Positions 8,863 through 39,670 of a DNA stretch of 39,670 nt are shown piece by piece. The stretch's first letter is position 1. Each line of letters begins with the position of its first letter. The DNA comes from Candidatus Kuenenia stuttgartensis (lineage in GTDB: Bacteria > Planctomycetota > Planctomycetia > Isosphaerales > Isosphaeraceae), in the NCBI GenBank assembly GCA_945874095.1, contig CAMCFM010000001.1, positions 1 through 39,670 of the forward strand, read 5' to 3'. Position numbers and translations under genes: made by a program. The notes beneath the pieces were generated by a model. It was not told the DNA's origin. It was given only the letters and a program-made list of their open reading frames with translations, and searched no databases.

Positions 8863-9387
8863 ATGCCATTTTTTCCGCTGTGGCTCTTCTCATTTGAAAA
8901 TGAGTGCAAAATCGCCCCTGTTACAACTCGCAATCAACAAACCAAATGGCCCAAACACTCGGATACGATTCGTGAGGCAGTTGACGAAAATCCGGATCGA
9001 ACCCTCGACAAACGTCTCGATCACTTGAAGATCGGAATCTCCAGAAGCACGCTTTGCCGCGCGTTGAAGGCATTGAAACTGACAATTAAAAAAGTGCTGA
9101 ACGCCGCGGAGCAAGAACGACCTGACGTGAAAGAAAAACGCCGGGAATGGATCGCTGGCCAAGCCAGCTTGGATCCCGAAAAACTGGTGTTCATCGATGA
9201 AACTTGGTTGAAGACGAATATGACCCGTCCACGTGGATCGTCATTGAAAGGCAAACGGCTTGGTGAAAGTGTACCGTTCGGCCATTGGATAAGGACAACG
9301 TTTGTCGCAGCGTTGCTGGCAATTCTTTGCAGAGTCAGGTACAGATTCGATGTAGAGTACCCCTGCCCTCAAATAGGTCAAGCTTGA
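8863..9387 (+). pseudogene. IS630-family transposase fragment (central part only)
   Basis: ISRSTLCRALKALKLTIKKVLNAAEQERPDVKEKRREWIAGQASLDPEKLVFIDETWLKTNMTRPRGSSLKGKRLGESVPFGHWIRTTFVAAL matches the HTH-linker-first-D (DET) region typical of IS630 transposases. The sequence after FVAAL is unrelated and the distal DDE part is missing. Confidence 0.6.
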
Positions 9388-27454: not shown

Positions 27455-27717
27455 ACAAGTTATGGCTTGCGTTTACAAAAGGGAGCGATCAAGCTGATCG
27501 ACTTCGGGCTTGCTGTTTCTAAAGATCCCACAAATTCGAATGGAAGGATTACGGCTGGAACCAAGGGCTTTACGTCTCCCGAACAGGCGATTGAATGACG
27601 CAGGTGAATCCGGATGAGCGGTATCAGAGCATTCTGGAAGTCATTAACGACTTGGAATTCCTGAAAGCGCATGGTTCCCTGCCTACGACTCGATTGGGGA
27701 TGGAAATGAGCATCTAA
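27455..27717 (+). pseudogene. Ser/Thr protein kinase remnant (subdomains VII-VIII and XI only)
   Basis: The first frame reads LQKGAIKLIDFGLAVSKDPTNSNGRITAGTKGFTSPEQAIE* with its stop at 27596-27598. A shifted frame starting at 27604 reads VNPDERYQSILEVINDLEFL...* with its stop at 27715-27717. The N-lobe and subdomains IX-X are missing. The remnant ends 4 nt before the ISL3 inverted repeat. Confidence 0.5.
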
Positions 27718-28205
27718 AATTGGCTCTTCCGCACTTTTGGTTGACACGGGAGTTTTAGCAAGACCCTCCGCCTCAACAGTTCAAAACTTCCCCGACCATA
27801 CATCTGGCGTTTGATTGTTTTCAGTCGGTTCACCTGACCCTCGACCTGACCGTTGCTCCATTCGCAGTTCAACGCCTCCTTCACGGCCATTTCGTCTTGC
27901 TGAAGGCCGGATGCAAAATGACGAATCTCCGATGGCATTTCCTTTGAAATCGCTTCACTCAGCCAACCTGTCCAATTCTCAATTCGGTGATTGCAAACCA
28001 TTTTGACGAATTCCTGACCAACTTTTCTGGCTTGGCGGAACACTGGATTGATTGACAAAAGCCTGTCCAGGAAGTGTTTGTCTTCGGTAGTCAGATACTC
28101 ATCATCGATGACCAGCAGACGTGAAACAGTTGACGCCGATGGCGGTTCGCCTGAACACTTGACTGCGACAGGCTTCAACGCCCCCCCCCGCCACTTGGCA
28201 ACCAT
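27714..28205 (-). pseudogene. ISL3 transposase, C-terminal fragment
   Basis: HFLDRLLSINPVFRQARKVGQEFVKMV...WLSEAISKEMPSEIRHFASGLQQDEMAVKEALNCEWSNGQVEGQVNRLKTIKRQMYGRGSFELLRRRVLL matches the conserved ISL3 C-terminal region. Confidence 0.75.
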
Positions 28206-28851: not shown

Positions 28852-29349
28852 ATGACCTATACAAACAGAAGGACTGGTGTGATACTATCAACCTGCTGCG
28901 TGGCCGACATCACAAGAATGAGGTATTTACCAGTGGGTGATCAACTTAAATTCGAGCCTTCAAACCTGACCCAGCCTCAGTTCCACCAGTTGTCGGAATG
29001 TGCGCATGCGGCGGAAAATTTATCTCCCCAGGTGCTAATTACTGCTGCAAAACAACACCTTGAGCGTACTCAAGCCGCCCATGCGTCTAATCGGCTAATC
29101 AATTTACGCCTTGCTACTGCAATTGTCAGTGTGCTGGAAGAGTTGGTGAACGCCCGGGGTATCATGGAAACAAATCAGGCGTGGTGGTTGAGAGGAGCGA
29201 TGTACTATTTCACAACCAGCAACGATGATGAGCCTGATTTTCAATCGCCTCTAGGGTTTGAGGACGATGCTGAAATCCTGAATGCCTGCTTGAAATTTAT
29301 CGACCGAAACGACCTATGTCTGAATGTTGAGGATTACGACAATGCCTAA
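28852..29349 (+). CDS. Small soluble protein with a DUF1232-like motif; first gene of the helicase/methylase operon
   Basis: 165-aa ORF, with an alternative start at ATG 28918 (MRYLPVG...). YYFTTSNDDEPDFQSPLGFEDDAEILNACL follows the DUF1232 pattern Y....P.D.IPDF.P..G..DD..V but without hydrophobic helices. Its stop overlaps the helicase start (ATGCCTAA). Confidence 0.5.
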   Translation: MTYTNRRTGVILSTCCVADITRMRYLPVGDQLKFEPSNLTQPQFHQLSECAHAAENLSPQVLITAAKQHLERTQAAHASNRLINLRLATAIVSVLEELVNARGIMETNQAWWLRGAMYYFTTSNDDEPDFQSPLGFEDDAEILNACLKFIDRNDLCLNVEDYDNA

Positions 29350-32329
29350 AGTCGTTACTCCGACACCCGGGATGCGTGTGCTGTGCCGAGATGCAGAATG
29401 GTTGGTAACGCGTGTGGATCCCTCGGATCACACCCACGAAAATTACGCAGTGCATTGCATCGGTGCTGATGACCTCGTTCGCGGGCATGAGGCCATCTTT
29501 CTAACGCAACTCGATGCGATCGAACCGGTCGACCCTCGCAACACGCAGCTCGTGCGGGACCAGTCCAGTGGATATAGGTTGGCAAAGCTATTTCTGGAAG
29601 CACAACTGCGACAGATGCCTGCCACCGGAGTTCAACCGGACTTGAAAGGCATGGGTGCCTTCAAGCCGATGAACTTTCAGGTTCAGACAGTTCAATGGGC
29701 ACTGAAACAGTTGCGACCCAGGCTGCTGTTGGCCGATGCCGTGGGGCTCGGCAAAACAATCCAGGTTGGGATGATCCTTTCCGAACTGATGCGTCGTGGA
29801 CGGGCCAGTCGGATTCTGGTTCTGGCGAAGAAGTCGATGCTGACTCAGTTCCAGTCGGAATTGTGGAACCGATTTGGCATCCCACTTGTGCGACTTGACT
29901 CCGATGGTATTGCGAAACTTCGATTGCGAATTCCTAGCAACAAGAATCCCTTCGAAGTTTACCATCGCATCATCATCAGTATCGATACCCTCAAGAACGT
30001 GGGCAGCTATCGTCATTTTCTCGAAAACACTCGCTGGGACTGTGTCGTCATCGATGAAGCACACAACGTGGCGGGAGCGAGCGTTCCCGAAAGACACCTT
30101 GCCTATCGTCTGGCCCGACTTTTATCTCGTCGAACCGACTCGATGTTGCTGACAACCGCAACACCTCATAACGGCAAACGCGAGACCTTTGGCCGACTGA
30201 TTTCCCTACTTGATCCCTCCGCCATCCCAGATCCTGATTTCAAGGAGTATAGCGCCGAGGACATCAAAGGGTTCTTCCTAATGCGCTTCAAGGAGGATGT
30301 CCGTGAGGATGCAGGTGAGAATCTGACGGACCGAATGCTGGTTCCTATAGAGCAAACGACCGTTCCGGCCAGCGAAGACGAGGAGAAAGTCTACGCCGCC
30401 CTGTCTGAGCTACGGGAGGAAACGAAAAGAAATAAGGGGAACGAAGACTGGAAAAACAACGTTCTTGTGCAGTACGGGATCTACAAACAATTCCTGTCCA
30501 GCCCCGAATCCTGTCGTAAAACTCTTCGAAAGCGAATTGTCGCCGTTCAGAAACATTCCTCCACCAGCCCTGAATTGCTATTTCTAGATGGGATCGATTC
30601 ACTTCTATCCAGTATGAGCATCCGCGAGTCGTCACGGTACAAATTGCTCAAAGCACAACTGGACGAAATTGGCTGGAATGGTTCACCCGCAAGTCCGCGT
30701 GTTCTCGTATTCACGGAATACCGTGAAACTCAGGATGCTCTGGCGGAGGCACTGTCAAACGACTACAAGCTGAATTACTCTTCGAAGTTCGAGCAACAGC
30801 CAAAGCAGGTCCTGGCAACGATCAATGGGTCTTGCCCAGACATCTGTCTGATGGACACGGTGGAGGCGTTCGGGACGGCATCATCAGAACTGCGGATGCT
30901 GCTGGCTACAGATGTGGCATCAGAAGGCGTGAACCTTCATCACCAGTGTCACAACATCATCCACTACGACCTGCCATGGTCGATCATCACGCTGATTCAA
31001 CGTAACGGCCGTATCGACCGCTTCGGGCAATTGCAGAACCCGGTCCTGCGTTACCTGCGTGTAAGCACTCGGGATGGTATGTTGAAGGGTGATGAGTCAA
31101 TCTTCGAACGTTTGATCGAGAAGGTCGAAGAGATCAACCGTTCTACCCGCCAGGGAGAAACGGTTCTGAAACTCTATGACCCCGAAGCGGAGGAGCGCTA
31201 CATAGCCCAAAAGGGAATCCTCCATGGTGATTCCGAGGTTTTGGAAAAAGCAGCCGCACAGAGCAGTCCCGAGGCAAACGAGCTGGAAACTATACTCAGC
31301 CAGGCCAATCCCTCAGGGCAGGAGGACTTTCTGAAATTCCTGCTTGGAGAGACCGATGAAGCTCCCTCTCAGTCGACAACTCTGGACTCCGCTGACAAAG
31401 TCAGTTCACGACTTCGCCTTTATGACGATCGGCGATTCCTGATCGAAGGATATCGATACCTCGCGGAACTGAGTCAGAATTACTCTGCCATTGAGGAGAA
31501 CGGTAAAGTGATTCTTCTCAGTGCCCCAAAAGACCTCTGTCGTCGGTTGGGAGCGCCCAGCGAGTCGAATGACGTTGTATTCGGAGCAACAGCGATTCCT
31601 TCCGAAGCATGGCCTCAAGACAACCAATTTCGCCTGTCGGATGATTCGGATCGTATCGAGCTGGCAATCAGAGCAGCAAGAAATACGTCGGGACATTGGT
31701 CAAGGGAGCTGATGGCCACCGACCAGCAACCGATTCTGAAATGGATCACCGAGCGACTGTTAATGCTGATGAAGCGAGGCGAGTGCCCGCACATCACTTC
31801 TCGCAAGCTTGAAAAAGGCGAGCTTTGCTTTTGCTTCATCGGTCAGTTCAGCTCCCGGGCGGGTGCCCCATTGGCCGTTGATGCTCACGCTATCTCGTTC
31901 CGAAAGGGGGGCGGCTTTCAACATCGTCCTCTACGCGAAGCTTTGGATAGGGCGGGTTTCGATAGCCTGGTCAACGAAGGCAAGGTCGGCGATCTGGATG
32001 CGATTCGAGGCCCCCTGATTGCGTCGGCTGTCGAAGCAAGCCTGGATTACTTGCGGAAACTGGGCCACCAACACGTGGAAAGCCTCTTGCCCTTACTTCG
32101 ACGGGAGAACCGTCGTCTGCGTAACTGGAAGAATCGGCGTGAAGAGCTGCTTGCCAGTCGGATTGAAAAACTGTCGCCCAATCACCCTAAAGCCAAGATG
32201 TACCGCAAGGATCTGGAAGAGATGGACGCCTACATCCGAGACCGGGAAGAGAATTGGCAGGATACCTACTTCACGGCTTCCACTGAACCATCGACTCAAT
32301 TGGTCCTGGTGATTGAAGGGCTGAACTGA
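29342..32329 (+). CDS. SNF2-family helicase/ATPase (DrmD-like)
   Basis: I trimmed ORF 29324..32329 to ATG 29342 (MPKVVTP...). Motifs: I LLADAVGLGKTIQ, II DCVVIDEAHNV, III LLTTATPHNGK, V LLATDVASEGVNL, VI LIQRNGRIDRFGQ. A ~360-aa C-terminal extension has no recognised motif. Confidence 0.9.
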   Translation: MPKVVTPTPGMRVLCRDAEWLVTRVDPSDHTHENYAVHCIGADDLVRGHEAIFLTQLDAIEPVDPRNTQLVRDQSSGYRLAKLFLEAQLRQMPATGVQPDLKGMGAFKPMNFQVQTVQWALKQLRPRLLLADAVGLGKTIQVGMILSELMRRGRASRILVLAKKSMLTQFQSELWNRFGIPLVRLDSDGIAKLRLRIPSNKNPFEVYHRIIISIDTLKNVGSYRHFLENTRWDCVVIDEAHNVAGASVPERHLAYRLARLLSRRTDSMLLTTATPHNGKRETFGRLISLLDPSAIPDPDFKEYSAEDIKGFFLMRFKEDVREDAGENLTDRMLVPIEQTTVPASEDEEKVYAALSELREETKRNKGNEDWKNNVLVQYGIYKQFLSSPESCRKTLRKRIVAVQKHSSTSPELLFLDGIDSLLSSMSIRESSRYKLLKAQLDEIGWNGSPASPRVLVFTEYRETQDALAEALSNDYKLNYSSKFEQQPKQVLATINGSCPDICLMDTVEAFGTASSELRMLLATDVASEGVNLHHQCHNIIHYDLPWSIITLIQRNGRIDRFGQLQNPVLRYLRVSTRDGMLKGDESIFERLIEKVEEINRSTRQGETVLKLYDPEAEERYIAQKGILHGDSEVLEKAAAQSSPEANELETILSQANPSGQEDFLKFLLGETDEAPSQSTTLDSADKVSSRLRLYDDRRFLIEGYRYLAELSQNYSAIEENGKVILLSAPKDLCRRLGAPSESNDVVFGATAIPSEAWPQDNQFRLSDDSDRIELAIRAARNTSGHWSRELMATDQQPILKWITERLLMLMKRGECPHITSRKLEKGELCFCFIGQFSSRAGAPLAVDAHAISFRKGGGFQHRPLREALDRAGFDSLVNEGKVGDLDAIRGPLIASAVEASLDYLRKLGHQHVESLLPLLRRENRRLRNWKNRREELLASRIEKLSPNHPKAKMYRKDLEEMDAYIRDREENWQDTYFTASTEPSTQLVLVIEGLN

Positions 32330-35300
32330 TGCCGCTCGACACCTGCGTCACAAACGTCGGCGAATACTATTCGTCCCACTACCTCGACAGCTTTTTTGCC
32401 AAAGATGTCAAGGAACTCGTCGCAAAATGGTATGAACAAGGTTCGGAAGGCCCCCCACGGCGTCTCCAGAACCTGTCGCAATACTATTTCCGCGCCAAAA
32501 CCCAGGTACTCGACGAAGAAGAACCAATTCGGCGGCGTTTTTCGGGTGACGAAGCTCTCGCCTGGCATTCCCGGCTCCTGCAAGCCCTGGGATACAGCGA
32601 TTTGCAAGCTTTTGACCACCCGGTCGAAGGCGGCGACACTTTTGTGCCTGTACTCGGCCGCGTCAACCGCTACAATCAGCCTTGGCTGGTGGTCTGTGAA
32701 ACCCATTTCTGCCTGCCCGAAGCAAGCCTGAAGGAAGGCATGCCCAGCGAGGATCCGCTCGGTATGGAACCTTTCATCGATCAACTCACAACCAGGTCCG
32801 ATCACGACCTCTGCACTGGTGACTGGAGCCGATGTGTAGGCCGAGTTTTTACTGAAGAAGACGCGCCTCGATGGATCATTCTCCTCGCCGGCAGTCAATT
32901 GCTGCTGCTTGACCGCAATACGTTCGCCCAAGGCCGATTCCTCGCGTTTGACCTGGACGACGCCTTCGGGCGTAAGGAAAAAGAGACCTTCAACCACATT
33001 GCGGCATTCCTCTCCGCAGAGTCGCTCTGCCCCGACGGTGAATCCGACGAAGTCCTGCTCGATAAGCTCGAAGAACAAAGTCACAAATTCGCTCACGGTG
33101 TCACTGAAAACCTCCAGTTCGCCGTACGGGAAGCCATAGAACTGCTGGTCAACGAATGGGCACGCGATCGCACTGAGCGTGAAAAACGGCCACTTCTTAG
33201 GATTTCCCGTGAAGAACTCAAGGCCAACGGCCAAAACCTACGCGTCAATCTCCCGGAACTGGACGATCGAAACTATAAAATCACCGCCGAACACCTTCGG
33301 CGTGAGGCCCTGACGTTCGTCTATCGACTCCTCTTTTGTTTTTACGCCGAAGCCCGCGGCGGTGAACTGGAAATTCTTCCGGTGGACGACACCATCTACC
33401 GACTCGGCTACAGCCTGGAATCGCTCCGCGACCTGGAACTCGTGCCACTCACCGAGGCCACCAGCTCTGGAACCTATTTTCATCAGCATCTGAAACACCT
33501 CTTCCGTATCATCCACAACGGTTTCCATCCCGGTGACCACTCCGGGCAAGAGATCCAGTCTCGCCTGCTGCTCAATAACGAAATGGTCCGCGCCTTCGAA
33601 GTGCGGCCGCTCACGGCCACTTTGTTCTCTCCAGATGCCACTCCACTGCTGAACCGGGCTGAACTCTCCAACCGCTGCCTGCAAAAGGTGATCCACTACC
33701 TATCACTCAGCAAGGACGATCGGTCTCGAACCGTCGGCCGTGTGAATTATGCCGAACTTGGTATCAACCAGTTGGGGGCCGTCTATGAGGGTTTGCTCTC
33801 TTACAAAGGCATGTTTGCCGACCAGGACCTGATACACGTCAAACCCAAAGACAAAGACTTTGGCGACAAGAAAACCCCCACCTGGTTTGTCCCCCGGGAA
33901 CGCATGGAAGAATTTGAGCGGGATGAAGTCGAACGACTGACCGACGGCATGCCACGAATTTACCGTAAAGGCGAATTCATCCTGCACCTGAACGGCATCG
34001 ACCGCGAACAGTCGGCATCCTACTACACGCCAGAAGTGCTCACCAAATGCCTGGTAGAAGAAGCCCTGCGCGAACTGCTCAAAGATTACACGCCCGACGA
34101 TGCCGACAAAATTCTCCATCTGAAAATCTGCGAACCCGCCATGGGCAGTGGCGCGTTCCTGAACGAGGCCGCTGAACAACTGGCGATCCGCTATCTGGAG
34201 CTAAAGCAGAAACAGCTCCAGGAAAGATACCCGGATGGCGAAGTGCCGCTCGCTGATCTGCCTCTGGTGCACCAGGAAAAACTCGGTACGCTTGCCACAA
34301 ATCCGCCTGACTTCGCTTTCGCAACCGTTCCCACCAGCATTGAACCAGCCCGCTTTGGCGACGAACTCCGACGCGTCAAGCACTACATCGCCACCAACAA
34401 CATCTATGGCGTTGACTTGAATGAAACCGCCGTCGAGCTGGGCCAGCTCTCGCTCTGGCTGGGCAGCATTCACCGGCTGCTGGTCAAAGAAGGTGACAAC
34501 GGCGGGCGGGACATCTATAAATCAGGTGCCACACCCTGGTTCGGCCTGCGCCTGCGGTGTGGCAACAGCCTGATCGGTGCGCGGCGATCTGTCTGGACCG
34601 CCGAACAGCTCAAACGTGGCGAGCATGCGTGGGACTCGAAACTGATCCAGCAGGTGCAGTCCGATATCGAGGCCCTGCAGGCCAACGCCTCTCTTGAAAC
34701 AATCGCCCTCTATCGCAAGGAAACGATCGACCTGGCCTGCAAAATCAAATGGGCCGACCTCGCTAAAGATGCCGAGCAGTGCCGCGCTCAGGTGGTGCGA
34801 TTTTGCGAATGTGCCCGCGAACGTAATACAACCGGAATGATTCCTGAAGAGAAGTCGCTGTACGAAAATCAGCAGACGACCTGGAAATGGGTCGGTAATC
34901 AAAAGGATCAGGACGCCCTGCTGGCCCTCTTTGACCTGCTGCCCAAGGGGCGCATACGCACGGTAGAGCGGATCTCGTTTGAGATCTTCCAGACTCTGGG
35001 CGAGCAGCATGCCGACTTCAAGGCGGGCTTGCCCCGGCTGCTCAAGCCGGGCACGGCTCGTGGCAGCGATGAGGTTTATCACTTCCTGGTCTTTGACCCC
35101 GAGATGGTGCCCACCCGCAGCGACTCGCTGATGAAATCGTTCTGGAAGGCGGATTGCGCCTCGGCGGCCGATTGGGTGAAGAAGCAGGTCACTCCCAAAT
35201 GGAAGAACGACGAGATTGCTGAAGCCCTGGCGGTTTGCGGGCTGATTGACGCGCACTGGCGTAACTACGCCCAGCAGCGTGCAGAGGCTCTTGCGGCCAC

Positions 35301-37965
35301 CGCCTGCACCGCCACGGTTTGGCCTTTGCCCGCCAATAGCCCTGCGGCTCTCAAGCCCGGGCCGTCGCTGGCTGATCAGGAACGCGTTTGCCGTGAACTG
35401 GAATCGACCTCGGGCAGTTTCCAGCGGTTGCGGTTGGTGATGGATACCTGGTGCAGTCTCTGGTTCTGGCCTCTGGAAAGTGTGGCTGATCTCCCCTCAC
35501 GCGATGGATTTCTGGCCTCGGCCCGGTTGCTGCTTTCGGGCGAGCGGCCAGACAAAGCCTGGGTGGGCATGCTCACCGCCCGACTCGGCTTTGAAGTGAA
35601 TGTGCTGCTGCAGGCCGCAGTTGATGGTGAAGTTCCCGATACCGAGTTAATGGCCAGTGCTTTGCCTTGGTTTACAGTTGCGGAGACGATTCGAACCGAG
35701 CAGCATTTTCATCATTGGGAGTTGGTGTTTGTTGAAACTTTGGGAGAAACATCGAATAGAGGTGGTTTTGACTTGTTAGTAGGGAACCCGCCATGGATTA
35801 AGTCAATTTGGTCAGACCCAAGTGTACTTTGCGAGCTTTCACCACAGCTAGGAGTTCGCCAAGTTCGAAGCGCTGAATTTAACAAGCACCGCCTTAGCCT
35901 TCTGCAAAGCTGGATTGCGAAGCAATTCTACTCAAATGAATTCCGCGTATCAGATGGGGCTAGTGCAGTTCTAAAGAATAATCGGCTTTACTACGAATTA
36001 GCAGGCATTCAGACGAATATCTACCGCAATTTCATAGTTCGATCTTGGCAGTTGGCATCGACCGATGGAATCATCAGCTTACTTCACCCTGAAGGAGCGT
36101 ACGACGATGCTCGAGGCGGAAAATTCCGATCTAAAATCTATCCTAGGCTGGTCGCTCACTACCACTTCAAGAATGAACTTCAACTGTTCTCAGATGTACA
36201 TCACGAAACCGATTACAGCATAAATATTTACAAGGGCTACTCATCCACTCCTAAATTCTCGCACATGTCAACCGTTTATCATCCAAAGACGATTAACGCC
36301 AGTCGACAACATTCCGATATTACTGCTTCCGTTCCAGGAATAAAAAATGATGAAAACGAATGGAATATTACACCACACAGCGAGCGTTTTTTAAATGTAG
36401 AAGAGAAGGAGCTCGAGCTGTTTTGTTCATTATTGGAAGACTTCGGGACACCGGTCCTTGAAACTCGGCTACCGCAGATTCACGCAAAAAGTCTAATGAA
36501 GATAGTTTCCAAGATAGTTGAAACGCCGCGTCGGCTTATTGACATGGATGGTGAATATATTGCGACCCAGCTTTTTCATGAGGCGAACTCTCAACGTGAC
36601 GGCCTGATAACACGCCAAGATCGACCGTCATTTCACCCTACCAGTACCCAAGAATGGATTATCACTGGTCCGCAATTCTTTGTTGGCACGCCTTTCAATC
36701 GAAAGTCGCGAACCAACTGCACCCATAACAACGCATATGATGACGTTGACTTAACCGATATCTTGAAAGATTTCTTGCCACAATCGGTTTACCGACCTGG
36801 TAATTCGGCTGGAGACACTGCAGGTTACGATACTCGTGTTCCTAGTTCGGCAGACGGACAAACCAAGACAACCGACAAATACCGATATATTAATCGAGAA
36901 ATGATTAGTTCTGGGCTTGAGCGAACTCTTGTTCCAGCCATTATTCCGCCACGGGTGACACACATTGATACAGTGTTTTCAGTTGACTTTAAATGTTACA
37001 GACAAATGGCGCTCTTTACAGCTAGCTGTTCGTCTATTTGTGTTGATTTTCTGGTGAAGTTGACCGGAAAAGGGCACTGCAAACACGACATCGTAGGGAC
37101 ATTACCAATTATTGAAACTAGACACTCGCAGGCACTTATAAGACGATCACTAAGGTTGAACTGTGTGTCAACCTCATATTCAAATTTGTGGACTGCTTTA
37201 TTGGACCAAGAACTAGTCGCCGATGATTGGATATCGAACGACTATCGGTTAGTGCAGGAATATGAATGTACGTGGCGCGAATTAAACGCATCGGAATGGT
37301 TTTGGAAATCGCCGGTGAGGACCGATTTCTCTCGCCGTCAAGCACTACTGGAGGTTGACGCGTTAGTTGCAATGGCATTAGGGCTAACGCTCGAAGAACT
37401 TCTAACAATCTACCGCGTCCAGTTCCCCGTGATGCGGATGTACGAACTGGCTGACGAGTTTGACGCCCGAGGTCGGCGGCTTCGCAACACAACCCGCAAG
37501 GATCAAGGCGGCACGCAGTTCCGCACGGCCCGTGAAGTCGTCGCAACACATTTCCCCGAAGCCTACAAAGTCCGTCCCGCCGAAGCGGCTCTCAGCACTG
37601 ACTGGCCTTTTGCCGAAGAAACCTCGATTCCGGTGGCCGAAGCCGAGCGAGTTCCAAACATCCCCGAATTCGCCTCCATCCACCGCTTTGTGGCCGCCAC
37701 ACAAAACCCGGAAGTTGACCCAAACGCCGGAGAGGACGGCCCACCCTCCGGCGCATTCACCGCCGAACGACTCGCCCAGCTACAAGATGTATACGGTGCT
37801 GGCCGAGTCCCCCTGATGCTGGATGTAAGCTGGGAAATCGACGACGGCCTCCAAACCGTCACCAAAACCTTCTACCCACCCTTCACCAAAGTCGACCGCG
37901 AAGCCGACTATGCCAGGGCGTGGGACGTGTTTGAAGAACGATATGGAAAAGGAGAGCAAGTATGA
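32329..37965 (+). CDS. Giant (1878 aa) N6-adenine DNA methyltransferase-domain protein (Eco57I/gamma-class-like, DrmMI/PglX-like)
   Basis: The ATG overlaps the helicase stop (TGATG). Motifs: SYYTPEVL (nt 34021, aa 565), motif I CEPAMGSGAFLNEA (nt 34129, aa 601), NIYGVDLNETAVELGQLSLWL (nt 34399, aa 691), motif IV FDLLVGNPPWIK (NPPW at nt 35785-35796, aa 1153-1156). Confidence 0.85.
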   Translation: MPLDTCVTNVGEYYSSHYLDSFFAKDVKELVAKWYEQGSEGPPRRLQNLSQYYFRAKTQVLDEEEPIRRRFSGDEALAWHSRLLQALGYSDLQAFDHPVEGGDTFVPVLGRVNRYNQPWLVVCETHFCLPEASLKEGMPSEDPLGMEPFIDQLTTRSDHDLCTGDWSRCVGRVFTEEDAPRWIILLAGSQLLLLDRNTFAQGRFLAFDLDDAFGRKEKETFNHIAAFLSAESLCPDGESDEVLLDKLEEQSHKFAHGVTENLQFAVREAIELLVNEWARDRTEREKRPLLRISREELKANGQNLRVNLPELDDRNYKITAEHLRREALTFVYRLLFCFYAEARGGELEILPVDDTIYRLGYSLESLRDLELVPLTEATSSGTYFHQHLKHLFRIIHNGFHPGDHSGQEIQSRLLLNNEMVRAFEVRPLTATLFSPDATPLLNRAELSNRCLQKVIHYLSLSKDDRSRTVGRVNYAELGINQLGAVYEGLLSYKGMFADQDLIHVKPKDKDFGDKKTPTWFVPRERMEEFERDEVERLTDGMPRIYRKGEFILHLNGIDREQSASYYTPEVLTKCLVEEALRELLKDYTPDDADKILHLKICEPAMGSGAFLNEAAEQLAIRYLELKQKQLQERYPDGEVPLADLPLVHQEKLGTLATNPPDFAFATVPTSIEPARFGDELRRVKHYIATNNIYGVDLNETAVELGQLSLWLGSIHRLLVKEGDNGGRDIYKSGATPWFGLRLRCGNSLIGARRSVWTAEQLKRGEHAWDSKLIQQVQSDIEALQANASLETIALYRKETIDLACKIKWADLAKDAEQCRAQVVRFCECARERNTTGMIPEEKSLYENQQTTWKWVGNQKDQDALLALFDLLPKGRIRTVERISFEIFQTLGEQHADFKAGLPRLLKPGTARGSDEVYHFLVFDPEMVPTRSDSLMKSFWKADCASAADWVKKQVTPKWKNDEIAEALAVCGLIDAHWRNYAQQRAEALAATACTATVWPLPANSPAALKPGPSLADQERVCRELESTSGSFQRLRLVMDTWCSLWFWPLESVADLPSRDGFLASARLLLSGERPDKAWVGMLTARLGFEVNVLLQAAVDGEVPDTELMASALPWFTVAETIRTEQHFHHWELVFVETLGETSNRGGFDLLVGNPPWIKSIWSDPSVLCELSPQLGVRQVRSAEFNKHRLSLLQSWIAKQFYSNEFRVSDGASAVLKNNRLYYELAGIQTNIYRNFIVRSWQLASTDGIISLLHPEGAYDDARGGKFRSKIYPRLVAHYHFKNELQLFSDVHHETDYSINIYKGYSSTPKFSHMSTVYHPKTINASRQHSDITASVPGIKNDENEWNITPHSERFLNVEEKELELFCSLLEDFGTPVLETRLPQIHAKSLMKIVSKIVETPRRLIDMDGEYIATQLFHEANSQRDGLITRQDRPSFHPTSTQEWIITGPQFFVGTPFNRKSRTNCTHNNAYDDVDLTDILKDFLPQSVYRPGNSAGDTAGYDTRVPSSADGQTKTTDKYRYINREMISSGLERTLVPAIIPPRVTHIDTVFSVDFKCYRQMALFTASCSSICVDFLVKLTGKGHCKHDIVGTLPIIETRHSQALIRRSLRLNCVSTSYSNLWTALLDQELVADDWISNDYRLVQEYECTWRELNASEWFWKSPVRTDFSRRQALLEVDALVAMALGLTLEELLTIYRVQFPVMRMYELADEFDARGRRLRNTTRKDQGGTQFRTAREVVATHFPEAYKVRPAEAALSTDWPFAEETSIPVAEAERVPNIPEFASIHRFVAATQNPEVDPNAGEDGPPSGAFTAERLAQLQDVYGAGRVPLMLDVSWEIDDGLQTVTKTFYPPFTKVDREADYARAWDVFEERYGKGEQV
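37819..37946 (+). repeat. Direct repeat copy A (3' end of the methyltransferase gene)
   Basis: 128 nt, about 89% identical by eye to 39374-39501, including the 40-nt perfect block CCCACCCTTCACCAAAGTCGACCGCGAAGCCGACTATGCC. Confidence 0.85.
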
Positions 37966-39215
37966 CTCAGTTTGCTGGTATTGATGTCGGTCAAGACCAT
38001 ACCTACAGTTGCGTACTCGATATTGAATCGAGAACATTTCACTATCCCGAACAACAGCTAAGCCTATCAGCAACCATCTCATGGCTTCAGTCTTTCAAAA
38101 AGCTGAAGGGAGCATGCATCGATGGGCCACCAAACCCCAATACGGGAGCTTTGGCACAAAGGTTACCACTCCAAACAATTCATAATACGGATCGACGTCT
38201 CACTGAATTTCAAATTGGTATCGGTGGTTGCTATTCCACGCGTGCGATTCCGCCACAGCAAGGAGCCAGCAACTATTGGATGCAAAGTGCGTTCGATCTC
38301 TTTCACCATATTGAAGCCAATTTCGAATGGGGTATTGACAAGGGTGGTGCGAATGGACAGCTGATCGAGACGCATCCAACATACGCCTTCAAGGCGCTCC
38401 TCGGTTGCAATCGGAATGAGATCGACGGGATCCAGCGACTTAGGCTCGATCCGCAGTCGACTCTGCGACGAAAGCATTCATGGGAAGGTCGGGCACAACG
38501 GATCGAATTGCTCACTGCATTGTGTGGCGAAATTGGTTTGGAGGTTCCCGATAACATTCTCCAAAAATGGAACCAACGTATTGATTGGGTGGATGCCGCA
38601 ATTTGTGCGTTCATGTCGTATTGGCACCATGCAATTCGTCAGCAATTAGAATCTCCGGGCGATCCGGTAGAGGGCGCGATCTATTTACGTATTCCTCAAA
38701 AACCACACGCTGTCAACGCACATGATGTCGGGGCAATTAGAGTCGACCGAGGCCCGCTGCGAACAGCCGTTCCAGTGCTTCCGCTGGATGGCATTCCAAC
38801 CCCAGCGAACGCAATCATACTTCGGCTCGGTGACACCGCCCAACTAACTCAATTAGACACGATTGACACCTTACTTTCTTCAGATGATCTTGAAGAATTT
38901 TGGTTTCCCTGTGGCAGTAACGCCAACTTCAATTTGTCTAAAAATCTGAACTTGTTGGGAGGACGGTTGTATCTTTCCTGGGGTGGAAATCTGCGTGTAA
39001 GATTGAGGATCAGCGACTTTCGTAAGGGCGATAACCCTTTACCATATCCGGGCGACTCGAAAAACCCGTGGCCTATGACAGAGTGCCTTTCTTGGTTGCG
39101 AATTAGCGAGGCCACTGAAATCCTTACTGACCAGTTTCGCGTAAAACAATCCGGCGTATGGACTCGTGGATTCGGTGCAGGGCAAACTGCACTATTGTGG
39201 GCGGTGGTTCCTTGA
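37962..39215 (+). CDS. RNase H-fold (DUF429-like) predicted nuclease fused to an uncharacterised ~170-aa C-terminal domain
   Basis: The ATG overlaps the methylase stop (ATGA). The N-terminus [17 protein letters not shown] and [15 protein letters not shown] resemble the DUF429 / RNase H-like nuclease pattern (GID.., E..P). The ORF is well supported. The functional call is tentative. Confidence 0.55.
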
Positions 39216-39235
39216 AATGGAGAGAACGATTGACC

Positions 39236-39553
39236 ATGCTTCAAGCACACCTGACCGAGAACATGCCTACACAGGATTGTATCTCCAATCGAATTTCAGC
39301 TTCCGCCGACTTCACCAACACCCGTACCCAGTATCTCCAGCTAGTCTATGGCTCAGTTCGCGTAGGTCTGAAGCTGGACGTAACCTGGGCGATCGACGAC
39401 GGCCTTCAAACCGTCACCAAGACCTTCGACCCACCCTTCACCAAAGTCGACCGCGAAGCCGACTATGCCCGTGCCTGGGAGGTGTTTGAAGAGCGTTACG
39501 GTGGAACTGTTTCAACCGTTCAGGAAAGTGAAGAAAAGGATTCCAATCCGTGA
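39236..39553 (+). CDS. Small ORF homologous to the methyltransferase C-terminal ~70 aa (stand-alone tail domain or remnant of a second methylase allele)
   Basis: I trimmed ORF 39158..39553 to ATG 39236, which has GGAGAG 12 nt upstream. [65 protein letters not shown] aligns with [66 protein letters not shown] at the end of the 1878-aa protein. Confidence 0.4.
39374..39501 (+). repeat. Direct repeat copy B (inside the small ORF downstream of the DUF429-like gene)
   Basis: See copy A. The two copies lie 1555 bp apart and bracket gene 37962..39215. Confidence 0.85.
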
Positions 39554-39670
39554 CAGGTCTCCTGTAGAATTGGTTCGAGTCGCGGAATAGAGATCTCCCA
39601 ACTTCCACCAAACTCGGTCTGTGATGCTGTCTCAGATGCGATCGGGATCAATGTTTAAGAACAGAGAGAG

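Follow-up and report, generated by a model that had tools for sequence, protein, structure and literature searches.

The locus and its repeated methylase tail

The stretch of DNA analysed here (the window) spans positions 1 to 39,670 of contig CAMCFM010000001.1 in assembly GCA_945874095.1. It is chromosomal DNA of planctomycete type and encodes CobN, CobW and proteins of the DUF1559 and PEP-CTERM kinds; the host is a freshwater planctomycete, and the locus towards the right end of the window is a phage-defence operon resembling ARMADA type II. In this operon the 3' end of a large adenine methylase gene occurs twice, the two copies bracketing a gene for a DUF429-like protein, and the second copy lies inside a small open reading frame (ORF); the nature and origin of this second methylase tail are the subject of the present report. 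The features that bear on it are the following, the arm types of the repeat copies having been assigned by aligning the variant contigs L001, L002 and L003 described below.

32329-37965, + strand: gene for an ArmB/DrmMI-like, PglX-like N6-adenine methyltransferase of 1878 amino acids (Pfam Eco57I, MmeI_Mtase and N6_Mtase)
37393-37946, + strand: conserved 3' block of the methylase gene, common to all population alleles and a putative homology anchor; Logan contigs of different alleles converge on it
37813-37946, + strand: repeat copy 1, the working methylase tail; an attL-like join of a host-type left arm and a cassette-type right arm
37874-37914, + strand: perfect core of 41 nucleotides in copy 1, holding all observed crossovers
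37962-39215, + strand: DUF429-like cargo gene, 417 amino acids, with a RuvC-like RNase H-fold N-domain and a PUA-like C-domain; its start overlaps the methylase stop (ATGA)
39236-39274, + strand: helicase-type head of the small ORF, equivalent to the opening ~13 codons of an ArmC/YprA-like helicase gene together with their ribosome-binding site (RBS), GGAGAG, at 39219-39224
39275-39367, + strand: diverged stretch from just upstream of a methylase tail, forming the cassette-type left arm (tblastn against 37747-37947)
39368-39501, + strand: repeat copy 2, the displaced methylase tail; an attR-like join of a cassette-type left arm and a host-type right arm
39429-39469, + strand: perfect core of 41 nucleotides in copy 2, from the copy-to-copy alignment
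39502-39670, + strand: tail end of the 17-codon type, then a spacer toward an AAA_21 ATPase gene; contigs L001 and L014 continue beyond the window

A repeat search of the window returns a direct repeat of 134 nucleotides with a spacing of 1555 bp, in which 119 of the 134 positions agree (88.8% identity), the longest perfect run being the 41-nucleotide core; since all other direct repeats in 33000-39670 measure 30 nucleotides or less (66-93% identity), it lies far outside the background. An earlier note on this DNA had claimed such a repetition of the methylase 3' end, together with the 417-residue DUF429-like gene and the small ORF at 39236-39553: the repeat is real, both ORFs are as described, and the coordinates given were within 6 nucleotides of the computed ones, the proposed length of 128 and core of 40 nucleotides having to be corrected to 134 and 41. 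The weaker protein similarity which it placed further upstream is likewise found, as tblastn aligns residues 23-89 of the small ORF with window 37747-37947 at 76% identity, residues 23-46 being those upstream of the repeat; at the nucleotide level the in-register identity is 47-53% over the 60 nucleotides to the left (37750-37809), and at chance level before 37750 and after 37960. The two copies differ at 9 of ~29 synonymous sites (~31%), therefore copy 2 comes from another allele and not from a fresh duplication.

The small ORF starts with ATG and its product has 105 amino acids. The first 13 residues match the N-terminus, MLPAHLAENIRKQ, of the helicase encoded in three related loci, L008 (Aureliella helgolandensis), L004 and L017; 8 of the 13 residues are identical and the match stands in the same place as in these relatives, just after the DUF429 stop. 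That this head is a helicase start follows from its position and from the longer helicase heads fused to tails in L011 and L013; in L011, 47 helicase residues are joined to a tail at GLQ, between the DUF429 gene and a GmrSD gene. Read from its sequence, the small ORF is thus a chimera, with the head of a helicase gene and, for the rest, a displaced methylase tail. The earlier note had overlooked this composition, as well as the ARMADA-like character of the operon and the native place of DUF429 in distant relatives. Beyond it, an AAA_21 ATPase gene starts at ~39679, 9 nucleotides past the window, and encodes 361 amino acids in L014; it is called AbiL/AriA-like after the PADLOC assignment of its homologue in L007. 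A scan of 37600-39670 for promoters and terminators gave nothing beyond the shuffled expectation. Two products of 62 amino acids (P0011 and P0013) were considered as stand-alone tail genes and discarded, their locus (L012) being a frameshift-ridden assembly with every large gene fragmented.

Unusual nucleotide conservation of the tail, as might come from selection for a recombination site, is not supported in general. Synonymous divergence over the last 45 methylase codons (0.63 against L004, 0.54 against L017) is like that of other conserved segments and is low against Aureliella only (0.21), and the nucleotide identities of the tails (81-92%) mostly mirror protein conservation. As to Aureliella, 21% of synonymous sites differ between the last 45 codons of its methylase gene (L008 9861-9992) and window 37831-37962, as against 50-76% in other conserved segments, and the DUF429 genes adjoining these two tails are only 38% identical, a pattern which suggests that the tail was exchanged locally between distant lineages.

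Variant junctions and parallel loci

Lake-metagenome contigs that are 95-99% identical to the window (L001, L002/L003, L013 and L014-L016) include three other junction forms. In L001, the 3' end of a methylase gene with a different variable region combines a copy-1-type left arm with a copy-2-type right arm and runs straight into the DNA found downstream of copy 2; there is no DUF429 gene. The comparison proposed in the earlier note, namely with variants that lack the intervening DNA, has thereby found a form in which the methylase is joined directly to the downstream sequence. Conversely, L002 and L003, assembled from two samples, lead out of the 3' end of the DUF429 gene, by way of the small-ORF head, a copy-2-type left arm and a copy-1-type right arm, into the DUF429 5' end, which, as the contigs are read, is the reciprocal junction, from a circular or a tandem form. 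In all three the switch point lies inside the 41-nucleotide core.

The third form, L013 (99% identical to the window), carries in succession a first tail, the DUF429 gene, a second tail ending in SRRYSSPEV and a stop, a gene of 285 codons, a second helicase-head remnant and a third tail, which contains stop codons and is followed by a match to window 39502-39668; it is a two-cassette array. The types of tail end travel with the gene that lies downstream, that is KGEQV-stop with DUF429, SRRYSSPEV-stop with the 285-codon gene, and the 17-codon type of the window with the AAA_21 ATPase gene. Pfam and PADLOC searches with the 285-residue protein of L013 and with the cargo genes of L004 gave no significant family; the former may resemble RlmJ.

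The small ORF is followed by the AAA_21 ATPase gene also in L014-L016. In these contigs, from three samples, the sequence upstream of 39267, inside the helicase-head codons, is replaced by at least 170 nucleotides of unrelated, non-coding-looking sequence, which could be the end of an insertion sequence (IS) or the result of another rearrangement.

Population polymorphism is seen in the Logan contig depths of eight freshwater runs, which are approximate. Relative to its flanks the DUF429 unit has a depth of ~13% to 100%, with flank and unit depths of 22.5/23 and 7, 33/35.5 and 4, 19/19 and 8.6, and 27/24 and 24, and it occurs with the allele of the L001 type and with at least two other methylase alleles. 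One contig of run X5 (37302-39464) spans both copies, and the balance of depths in run X2 requires that most left flanks be joined directly to the right flank. Taken with the natural variants, this polymorphism bears out the suggestion that the nuclease gene can be lost by recombination between the repeats. The 3' part of the DUF429 gene and the small ORF (38682-39414) have a depth of 18 in run X7, and the 5' part of the DUF429 gene one of 0-5; the loose end at 38682, near the linker between the two domains, suggests either that this allele has another N-domain or that the DNA is rearranged there.

Independent parallels exist as well. A case in point is the widespread family L017-L020 (at least 24 contigs), in which the order is SNF2 helicase, methylase, a STAND NTPase of 1248 amino acids, a displaced tail of 105 amino acids (P0155), a 236-residue protein, GmrSD, helicase and UvrD; a 222-nucleotide repeat of 75% identity brackets the STAND NTPase gene, so that a different gene between the repeats, which the earlier note had proposed to look for, is found in an independent family. 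Tail residues that are invariant elsewhere have changed in P0155 (F to C, D to H, Y to C). In L004 the helicase head is found twice, flanking ~5.7 kb, and L007 has a truncated tail, an AAA_21 ATPase gene and a truncated helicase head. A 31-mer of the core recurs in the metagenome contigs at one locus only, that of L007, which is to be taken as a parallel and not as a census. Lastly, in a metagenome-assembled genome of Pirellulaceae (L021, 10001-11856) a methylase 3' fragment of 264 amino acids precedes a shorter DUF429 gene (353 amino acids); no SNF2 or methylase gene was seen within 10 kb upstream, the neighbours being AAA, DUF2997 and ThiF genes, and either the fragment has been relocated or the operon to which it belonged has decayed.

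With the last 189 methylase residues as query, all matches returned had 325 amino acids or less; many stand on long contigs, some of these cyanobacterial (Nostoc, Nodosilinea). This may mean that methylase ends truncated at the 5' side are widespread far outside the planctomycetes, or else that a word-based search is biased towards short entries; two cases, P0155 and P0074, were checked.

Origin of the second tail

The second tail is, with good probability, a recombination scar between two cargo cassettes that are stacked between the ArmB-like methylase and the ArmC-like helicase genes. The scar is of the C-terminal-displacement type and is still a substrate for homologous recombination; the small ORF and the unit are probably neither a stand-alone gene nor a self-mobile element. 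Among the three explanations offered in the earlier note, this agrees with the first, an insertion or exchange at the methylase end which left the old tail behind, and it is in line with the form that lacks the gene, the reciprocal junction, the two-cassette array, the crossovers within the core and the independent L017-L020 family.

As for the course of events, the basic operon would be that of Aureliella (L008), with SNF2 helicase, methylase, DUF429, helicase and UvrD genes, and the recipient locus one in which the methylase gene was followed by the AAA_21 ATPase gene. A segment with the DUF429 gene in the middle, the end of a methylase tail before it and ~13 initial helicase codons behind it would have been joined into the latter, on one side by homology within the conserved methylase 3' block (37393-37946), on the other by an illegitimate join fusing the helicase start to a methylase fragment of ~70 codons. 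This may have happened by homology-facilitated illegitimate recombination of the incoming DNA, as in C-terminal displacement, or the segment running from tail to helicase start may have circularised and then integrated by a single crossover; either route would yield the order methylase, first tail, DUF429, helicase head fused to second tail, next cargo. Later homologous recombination in the 41-nucleotide core, presumably of the RecA type, would then lead to loss, to tandem duplication or a circle, or to cassette exchange. For the helicase gene's RBS and start codon have been kept, the small ORF is probably translated as a by-product.

Several points weigh against this interpretation. All the junction forms come from short-read metagenome assemblies, Logan contigs break at the core, and direct linkage across the core is seen in run X5 only. 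L001 has a coverage of 1.66x and a 40-N scaffold gap upstream of its junction, and on present data it can be either the ancestral form or a secondary deletion. The match of the 13-residue head is weak if taken alone, and the two routes, one-sided illegitimate recombination and integration of a circle, cannot be told apart. That a RuvC-like gene should sit exactly between recombining repeats is, in the scar model, a coincidence. Finally, the small ORF is intact in most variants (P0001-P0004, L002, L003 and L013), and so is P0155 in at least 45 contigs, which leaves room for some function.

A different origin of the scar, by deletion, was also raised in the earlier note and looks unlikely as a separate explanation. 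According to it, a second operon copy or methylase allele lay downstream, for example in a single-crossover merodiploid, and was lost from helicase codon ~13 to ~70 codons before the end of the second methylase. The junction of head and tail would be identical, junctions of the microhomology type fit (the dipeptide GL is shared at the join in L011), and the synonymous-site difference of ~31% between the copies is as expected of a different allele; yet no tandem-operon intermediate occurs in any locus read, the deletion would need to be repeated with different cargo, and L002/L003 are not explained by deletion alone. Since the outcome is the same as that of the favoured explanation, the proposal stands as a variant route to the same scar, which is not separable from insertion or exchange.

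It is rather improbable that the small ORF is maintained as a functional protein, for instance as a free C-terminal module of the methylase with a binding or regulatory role towards some partner within the defence complex. Besides the intact copies just mentioned, the ORF has an RBS and an ATG, and few parts of the methylase are as well conserved as the tail motif. Nevertheless, when the window is compared with the GROS21 alleles, codons 1-44 show 5 non-synonymous and 0 synonymous changes (what differs in the tail part reflects an exchange of tail types), frameshifts occur in the versions P0007 and P0010, stops interrupt the third copy in L013, P0155 is altered at otherwise invariant residues, and the lengths of head and tail vary from event to event; to judge by the head changes, the frameshifts and the mutated P0155, there is no sign of purifying selection. 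The stand-alone module of the earlier note thus finds no support, nor does the small ORF occur anywhere as the conserved, independent gene that would have favoured it, for it always lies beside a locus of the methylase type. Among metatranscriptomes, a few low-depth contigs cover the DUF429 gene, one of them crossing the methylase-DUF429 boundary, and none was seen on the small ORF, which is a weak test.

A further view is that the 1555-bp unit is a self-mobile cassette, which its RuvC-like DUF429 protein, in the role of a site-specific recombinase or resolvase, would insert and excise at the 41-nucleotide core of methylase tails, copies 1 and 2 being attL and attR, L001 attB, and L002/L003 attP; it is very unlikely. 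All four att-like configurations do exist and switch within one core, the presence of the unit is polymorphic and extends to several methylase alleles, and a circular form would give a tidy operon of two genes, the small ORF and DUF429 (P0003, with ATGA overlap). In addition, the RuvC-like N-domain shares its RNase H-like clade with the transposases of IS110 (COG3547) (PMC3985635). However, the crossovers in the core are expected from homologous recombination anyway, because no other identical stretch has the length that such recombination needs to be efficient, and the breakpoints vary between events (13, ~20 and 47 helicase codons), a feature hard to square with site-specific integration. 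DUF429 occupies the same slot without flanking repeats in L004 and Aureliella, and similar displaced tails flank the STAND NTPase cargo in L017, with no DUF429 gene in the 20 kb read. Loci of the DUF429 type number 3 in 185,579 genomes, with one copy per genome, and neither the core nor the DUF429 protein has a match among viral contigs and plasmids. The orphan DUF429 homologues in L005, L009 and L010, considered as moved units, were rejected, there being no tail or helicase-head remnant alongside.

Nor does the protein look like a transposase. It has no Pfam match to the IS110 domains PF01548 and PF02371, its matches to IS621 are poor (template-modelling score, TM, 0.10-0.16), its C-domain is PUA-like and no Tnp domain is present, and no integrase domain is found in the unit. 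The stretch after the DUF429 gene, where a bridge RNA might be sought, is coding-derived, no RNA-family search having been made. Along the same line, Majorek et al. (PMC3985635) judged the DUF429 family unlikely to be mobile. On grounds of domain content, fold, copy number and variable junctions, the reading in which an IS110-like recombinase uses the tail for its att site is rejected.

That the repeat or the variant junctions are assembly artefacts is barely conceivable: in its favour are the shortness of the variant contigs and the low coverage of L001, yet the two-copy arrangement recurs in the window, in L013 and in the single contig of X5, the diagnostic differences are at most 5 nucleotides away from either end of the core and so within the span of ordinary reads, the samples behind L002 and L003 are not the same, and the depth balance of X2 calls for most left flanks to be joined directly to the right flank.

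The operon, its cargo and comparable systems

Two further features of the operon lie to the left of the repeat.

29324-32329, + strand: gene for an ArmA/DrmD-like Swi2/Snf2 helicase of 1001 amino acids (Pfam SNF2-rel_dom, 1.6e-14, and Helicase_C; PADLOC DrmD, 2.5e-87, and BrxHII, 3e-51)
35779-37392, + strand: allele-specific variable module of the methylase gene, low in G+C (41-47%) and lying directly after NPPW (G+C profile, identity to L004)

The first gene of the operon is thus a Swi2/Snf2 helicase (ArmA), and its stop overlaps the start of the PglX-like methylase gene (ArmB), whose translation has the NPPW motif (GNPPW) and which scores in PADLOC as REase_MTase_IIG (7e-206) and DrmMI (1e-51); the same methylase gene is in the same place in L004, L008 and L017. 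The window ends at 39670, short of the helicase (ArmC) and UvrD (ArmD) genes of its relatives, and of ArmC it keeps the first ~13 codons only. Downstream in the relatives, an ArmC-type helicase of the YprA family (2232 amino acids in L008, 2221 in L017 and 2216 in the contig of P0004) is followed by UvrD. The gene order in L008, with genes abutting, is SNF2, DUF1016 nuclease, methylase (split by an IS), DUF429, the 2232-residue helicase and UvrD, the helicase having DEAD, Helicase_C and MZB (DUF1998) domains and its best PADLOC score with DruE (2.6e-88); L004 has SNF2, methylase and DUF429, and no repeat.

ARMADA type II consists of armA-armB-armC-armD and is related to class 1 DISARM and Druantia (bioRxiv 10.1101/2025.09.15.676423; PMC13463889). 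The likeness lies in the Swi2/Snf2 helicase, in the large adenine methylase that comes after it, PglX-like and carrying NPPW, and, in the relatives of the window, in a YprA-family helicase with DUF1998 and a UvrD/GajB-like helicase downstream in the same direction. The difference is that ARMADA II was described with a strict order of four genes (PMC13463889), whereas here DUF429, STAND NTPase, GmrSD, AAA_21 ATPase or the 285-codon gene lie as cargo between armB and armC, set apart by displaced methylase tails; DUF429 has 0 occurrences in the main text of that paper. As for class 1 DISARM, DrmD-like and DrmMI-like genes are present, but in the relatives the helicase and DUF1998 are fused and score best as DruE, and no phospholipase D (PLD) gene of the DrmC type was seen in the 10-kb flanks of the relatives' loci.

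Some observations on the operon may be added. The armA-armB boundary is a second variable slot, empty in the window (stop/start overlap at 32329) and holding a 23S_rRNA_IVP-like gene of 162 codons in L004 (3961-4449) and a DUF1016/YhcG nuclease gene (PADLOC PDC-S02) in L008 (1803-2978). The Aureliella methylase is split into 676 and 1226 amino acids by an oppositely oriented Transposase_mut gene (L008 5009-6283), owing to which this copy of the operon is probably inactive. Upstream of the operon in the window there are fragments of transposase genes, of the ISL3 type at 27714-28205 (- strand) and of the IS630 type at 8863-9387 (+ strand), the former ~1.1 kb before an ORF of 165 amino acids that precedes armA.

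Turning to the cargo, the DUF429-like protein matches Pfam PF04250 with 32.1 bits (cut-off 23), the match covering residues 104-218 only. Its AlphaFold model has a mean confidence (pLDDT) of 90 and RuvC matches in Foldseek (TMt 0.55-0.60), and D8, D54, E136, D208 and D211, putative catalytic acids, are invariant or nearly so in 22 homologues; score, predicted N-domain fold and acidic residues are those of a member of this family, which belongs to RNase H-like clade D. Folded alone, the C-domain (residues 268-417, window 38763-39215) gives a PUA-like barrel (pLDDT 90.6) whose best matches, to YTH, ASCH and EVE-type/VcaM4I domains, are weak (E of 0.12 or more, TM 0.47). From these models it is possible that a modified-base reader is fused to a RuvC-like nuclease beside an adenine methylase. 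The homologues form a small family of 38 clusters, from planctomycetes where named. Their syntenic position in L004 (68% identity) and L008 (38% identity) marks DUF429, on the gene order compared, as the native occupant of the methylase-helicase slot in distant relatives.

The methylase itself comes in several alleles. Across 35779-37392 its amino acid identity to L004 is 28-58%, and 60-98% in the flanks, so this module is probably an exchangeable target-recognition region. Lake metagenomes hold at least four methylase alleles, which diverge upstream of ~37302-37401, where Logan contigs have loose ends; L001, which is 95% identical to the window over 37579-37946, is another allele, and the window's own variable region was found in 1 of the 8 freshwater runs only. 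In one allele (runs X4 and X8), 85 nucleotides of the conserved 3' block (37466-37552) are swapped for 85 different letters. Most of the variation in the ARMADA islands of E. coli is likewise reported in armB (PMC13463889).

The locus is a case from nature in which accessory effectors enter and leave a phage-defence operon of several genes with no dedicated mobile-element machinery at work: the conserved ends of genes serve as homology anchors, and one illegitimate join leaves a scar of helicase head and methylase tail that keeps the cassette unstable. Such turnover is directly measurable, since empty, single and double forms, as well as tandem or circular ones, coexist in these lake populations and are spread over several methylase alleles. 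Type II ARMADA systems are hereby extended to Planctomycetota, their four-gene order is not strict, and the DUF429 protein, with its RuvC-like domain and possible modified-base reader, is a candidate fifth component. For annotators there is a warning, in that small hypothetical proteins resembling methylase C-termini are mostly scars.

A broader reading, which is speculative and more doubtful than the scar itself, would see in the methylase tail and the helicase start a built-in docking site of ARMADA-like operons, at which effectors are stacked, shed and swapped between strains, an analogue of the integron that is recombinase-free or possibly assisted by DUF429 and is maintained by selection under phage pressure in planctomycete populations. 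The chimeras of head and tail would then be cassette boundaries, and the candidate effectors would be the DUF429 RuvC/PUA nuclease, the STAND NTPase, GmrSD, the AbiL/AriA-like ATPase and the 285-codon gene.

Among known processes, the closest at hand is that of Rhs, contact-dependent inhibition (CDI) and type VI secretion system (T6SS) loci, where 3' ends are orphaned by C-terminal displacement through homology-facilitated illegitimate recombination (Kirchberger et al. 2017, PMC5361080). There as here, a conserved upstream part of the gene anchors the incoming DNA, the old 3' end persists downstream as a 5'-truncated orphan (copy 2 in the window, two such ends in L013 and one in L017, each beyond the acquired DNA), repeated events build arrays, and the orphans can recombine back with the main gene. 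The differences are that the gene is a defence methylase and not a toxin; that, instead of a toxic tip with its immunity gene, a whole accessory gene is added behind a nearly unchanged tail, the tails being near-identical in the conserved motif and differing only in the last 5-17 codons; that the scar is a chimera of two genes; and that the reciprocal products co-occur in natural populations.

The exchange of modules in hsdS (Type I), in Type IIG enzymes and in BREX PglX resembles the allele-specific module at 35779-37392, which lies between conserved blocks and has at least four alleles in one lake population. This likeness concerns the neighbouring part of the gene, whereas the main finding is a cargo gene behind the tail and involves no specificity switch.

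Islands in tRNA and tmRNA genes offer another parallel, for the target gene is rebuilt with a 3' end brought by the element, the old 3' end lies at the far side, direct repeats bracket the insert, and empty, occupied and tandem states coexist. Unlike these islands, the present locus has no tyrosine or serine integrase, the positions of its junctions vary, and its repeats are 134-222 nucleotides of diverged coding sequence rather than a short exact att core.

To conclude with integron arrays, these too stack promoter-less cargo in one direction at a fixed docking place and push earlier cassettes downstream; in the planctomycete operon, with neither an integrase nor folded sites of the attC type, the boundaries of the cassettes are instead the remnants of the two flanking core genes.

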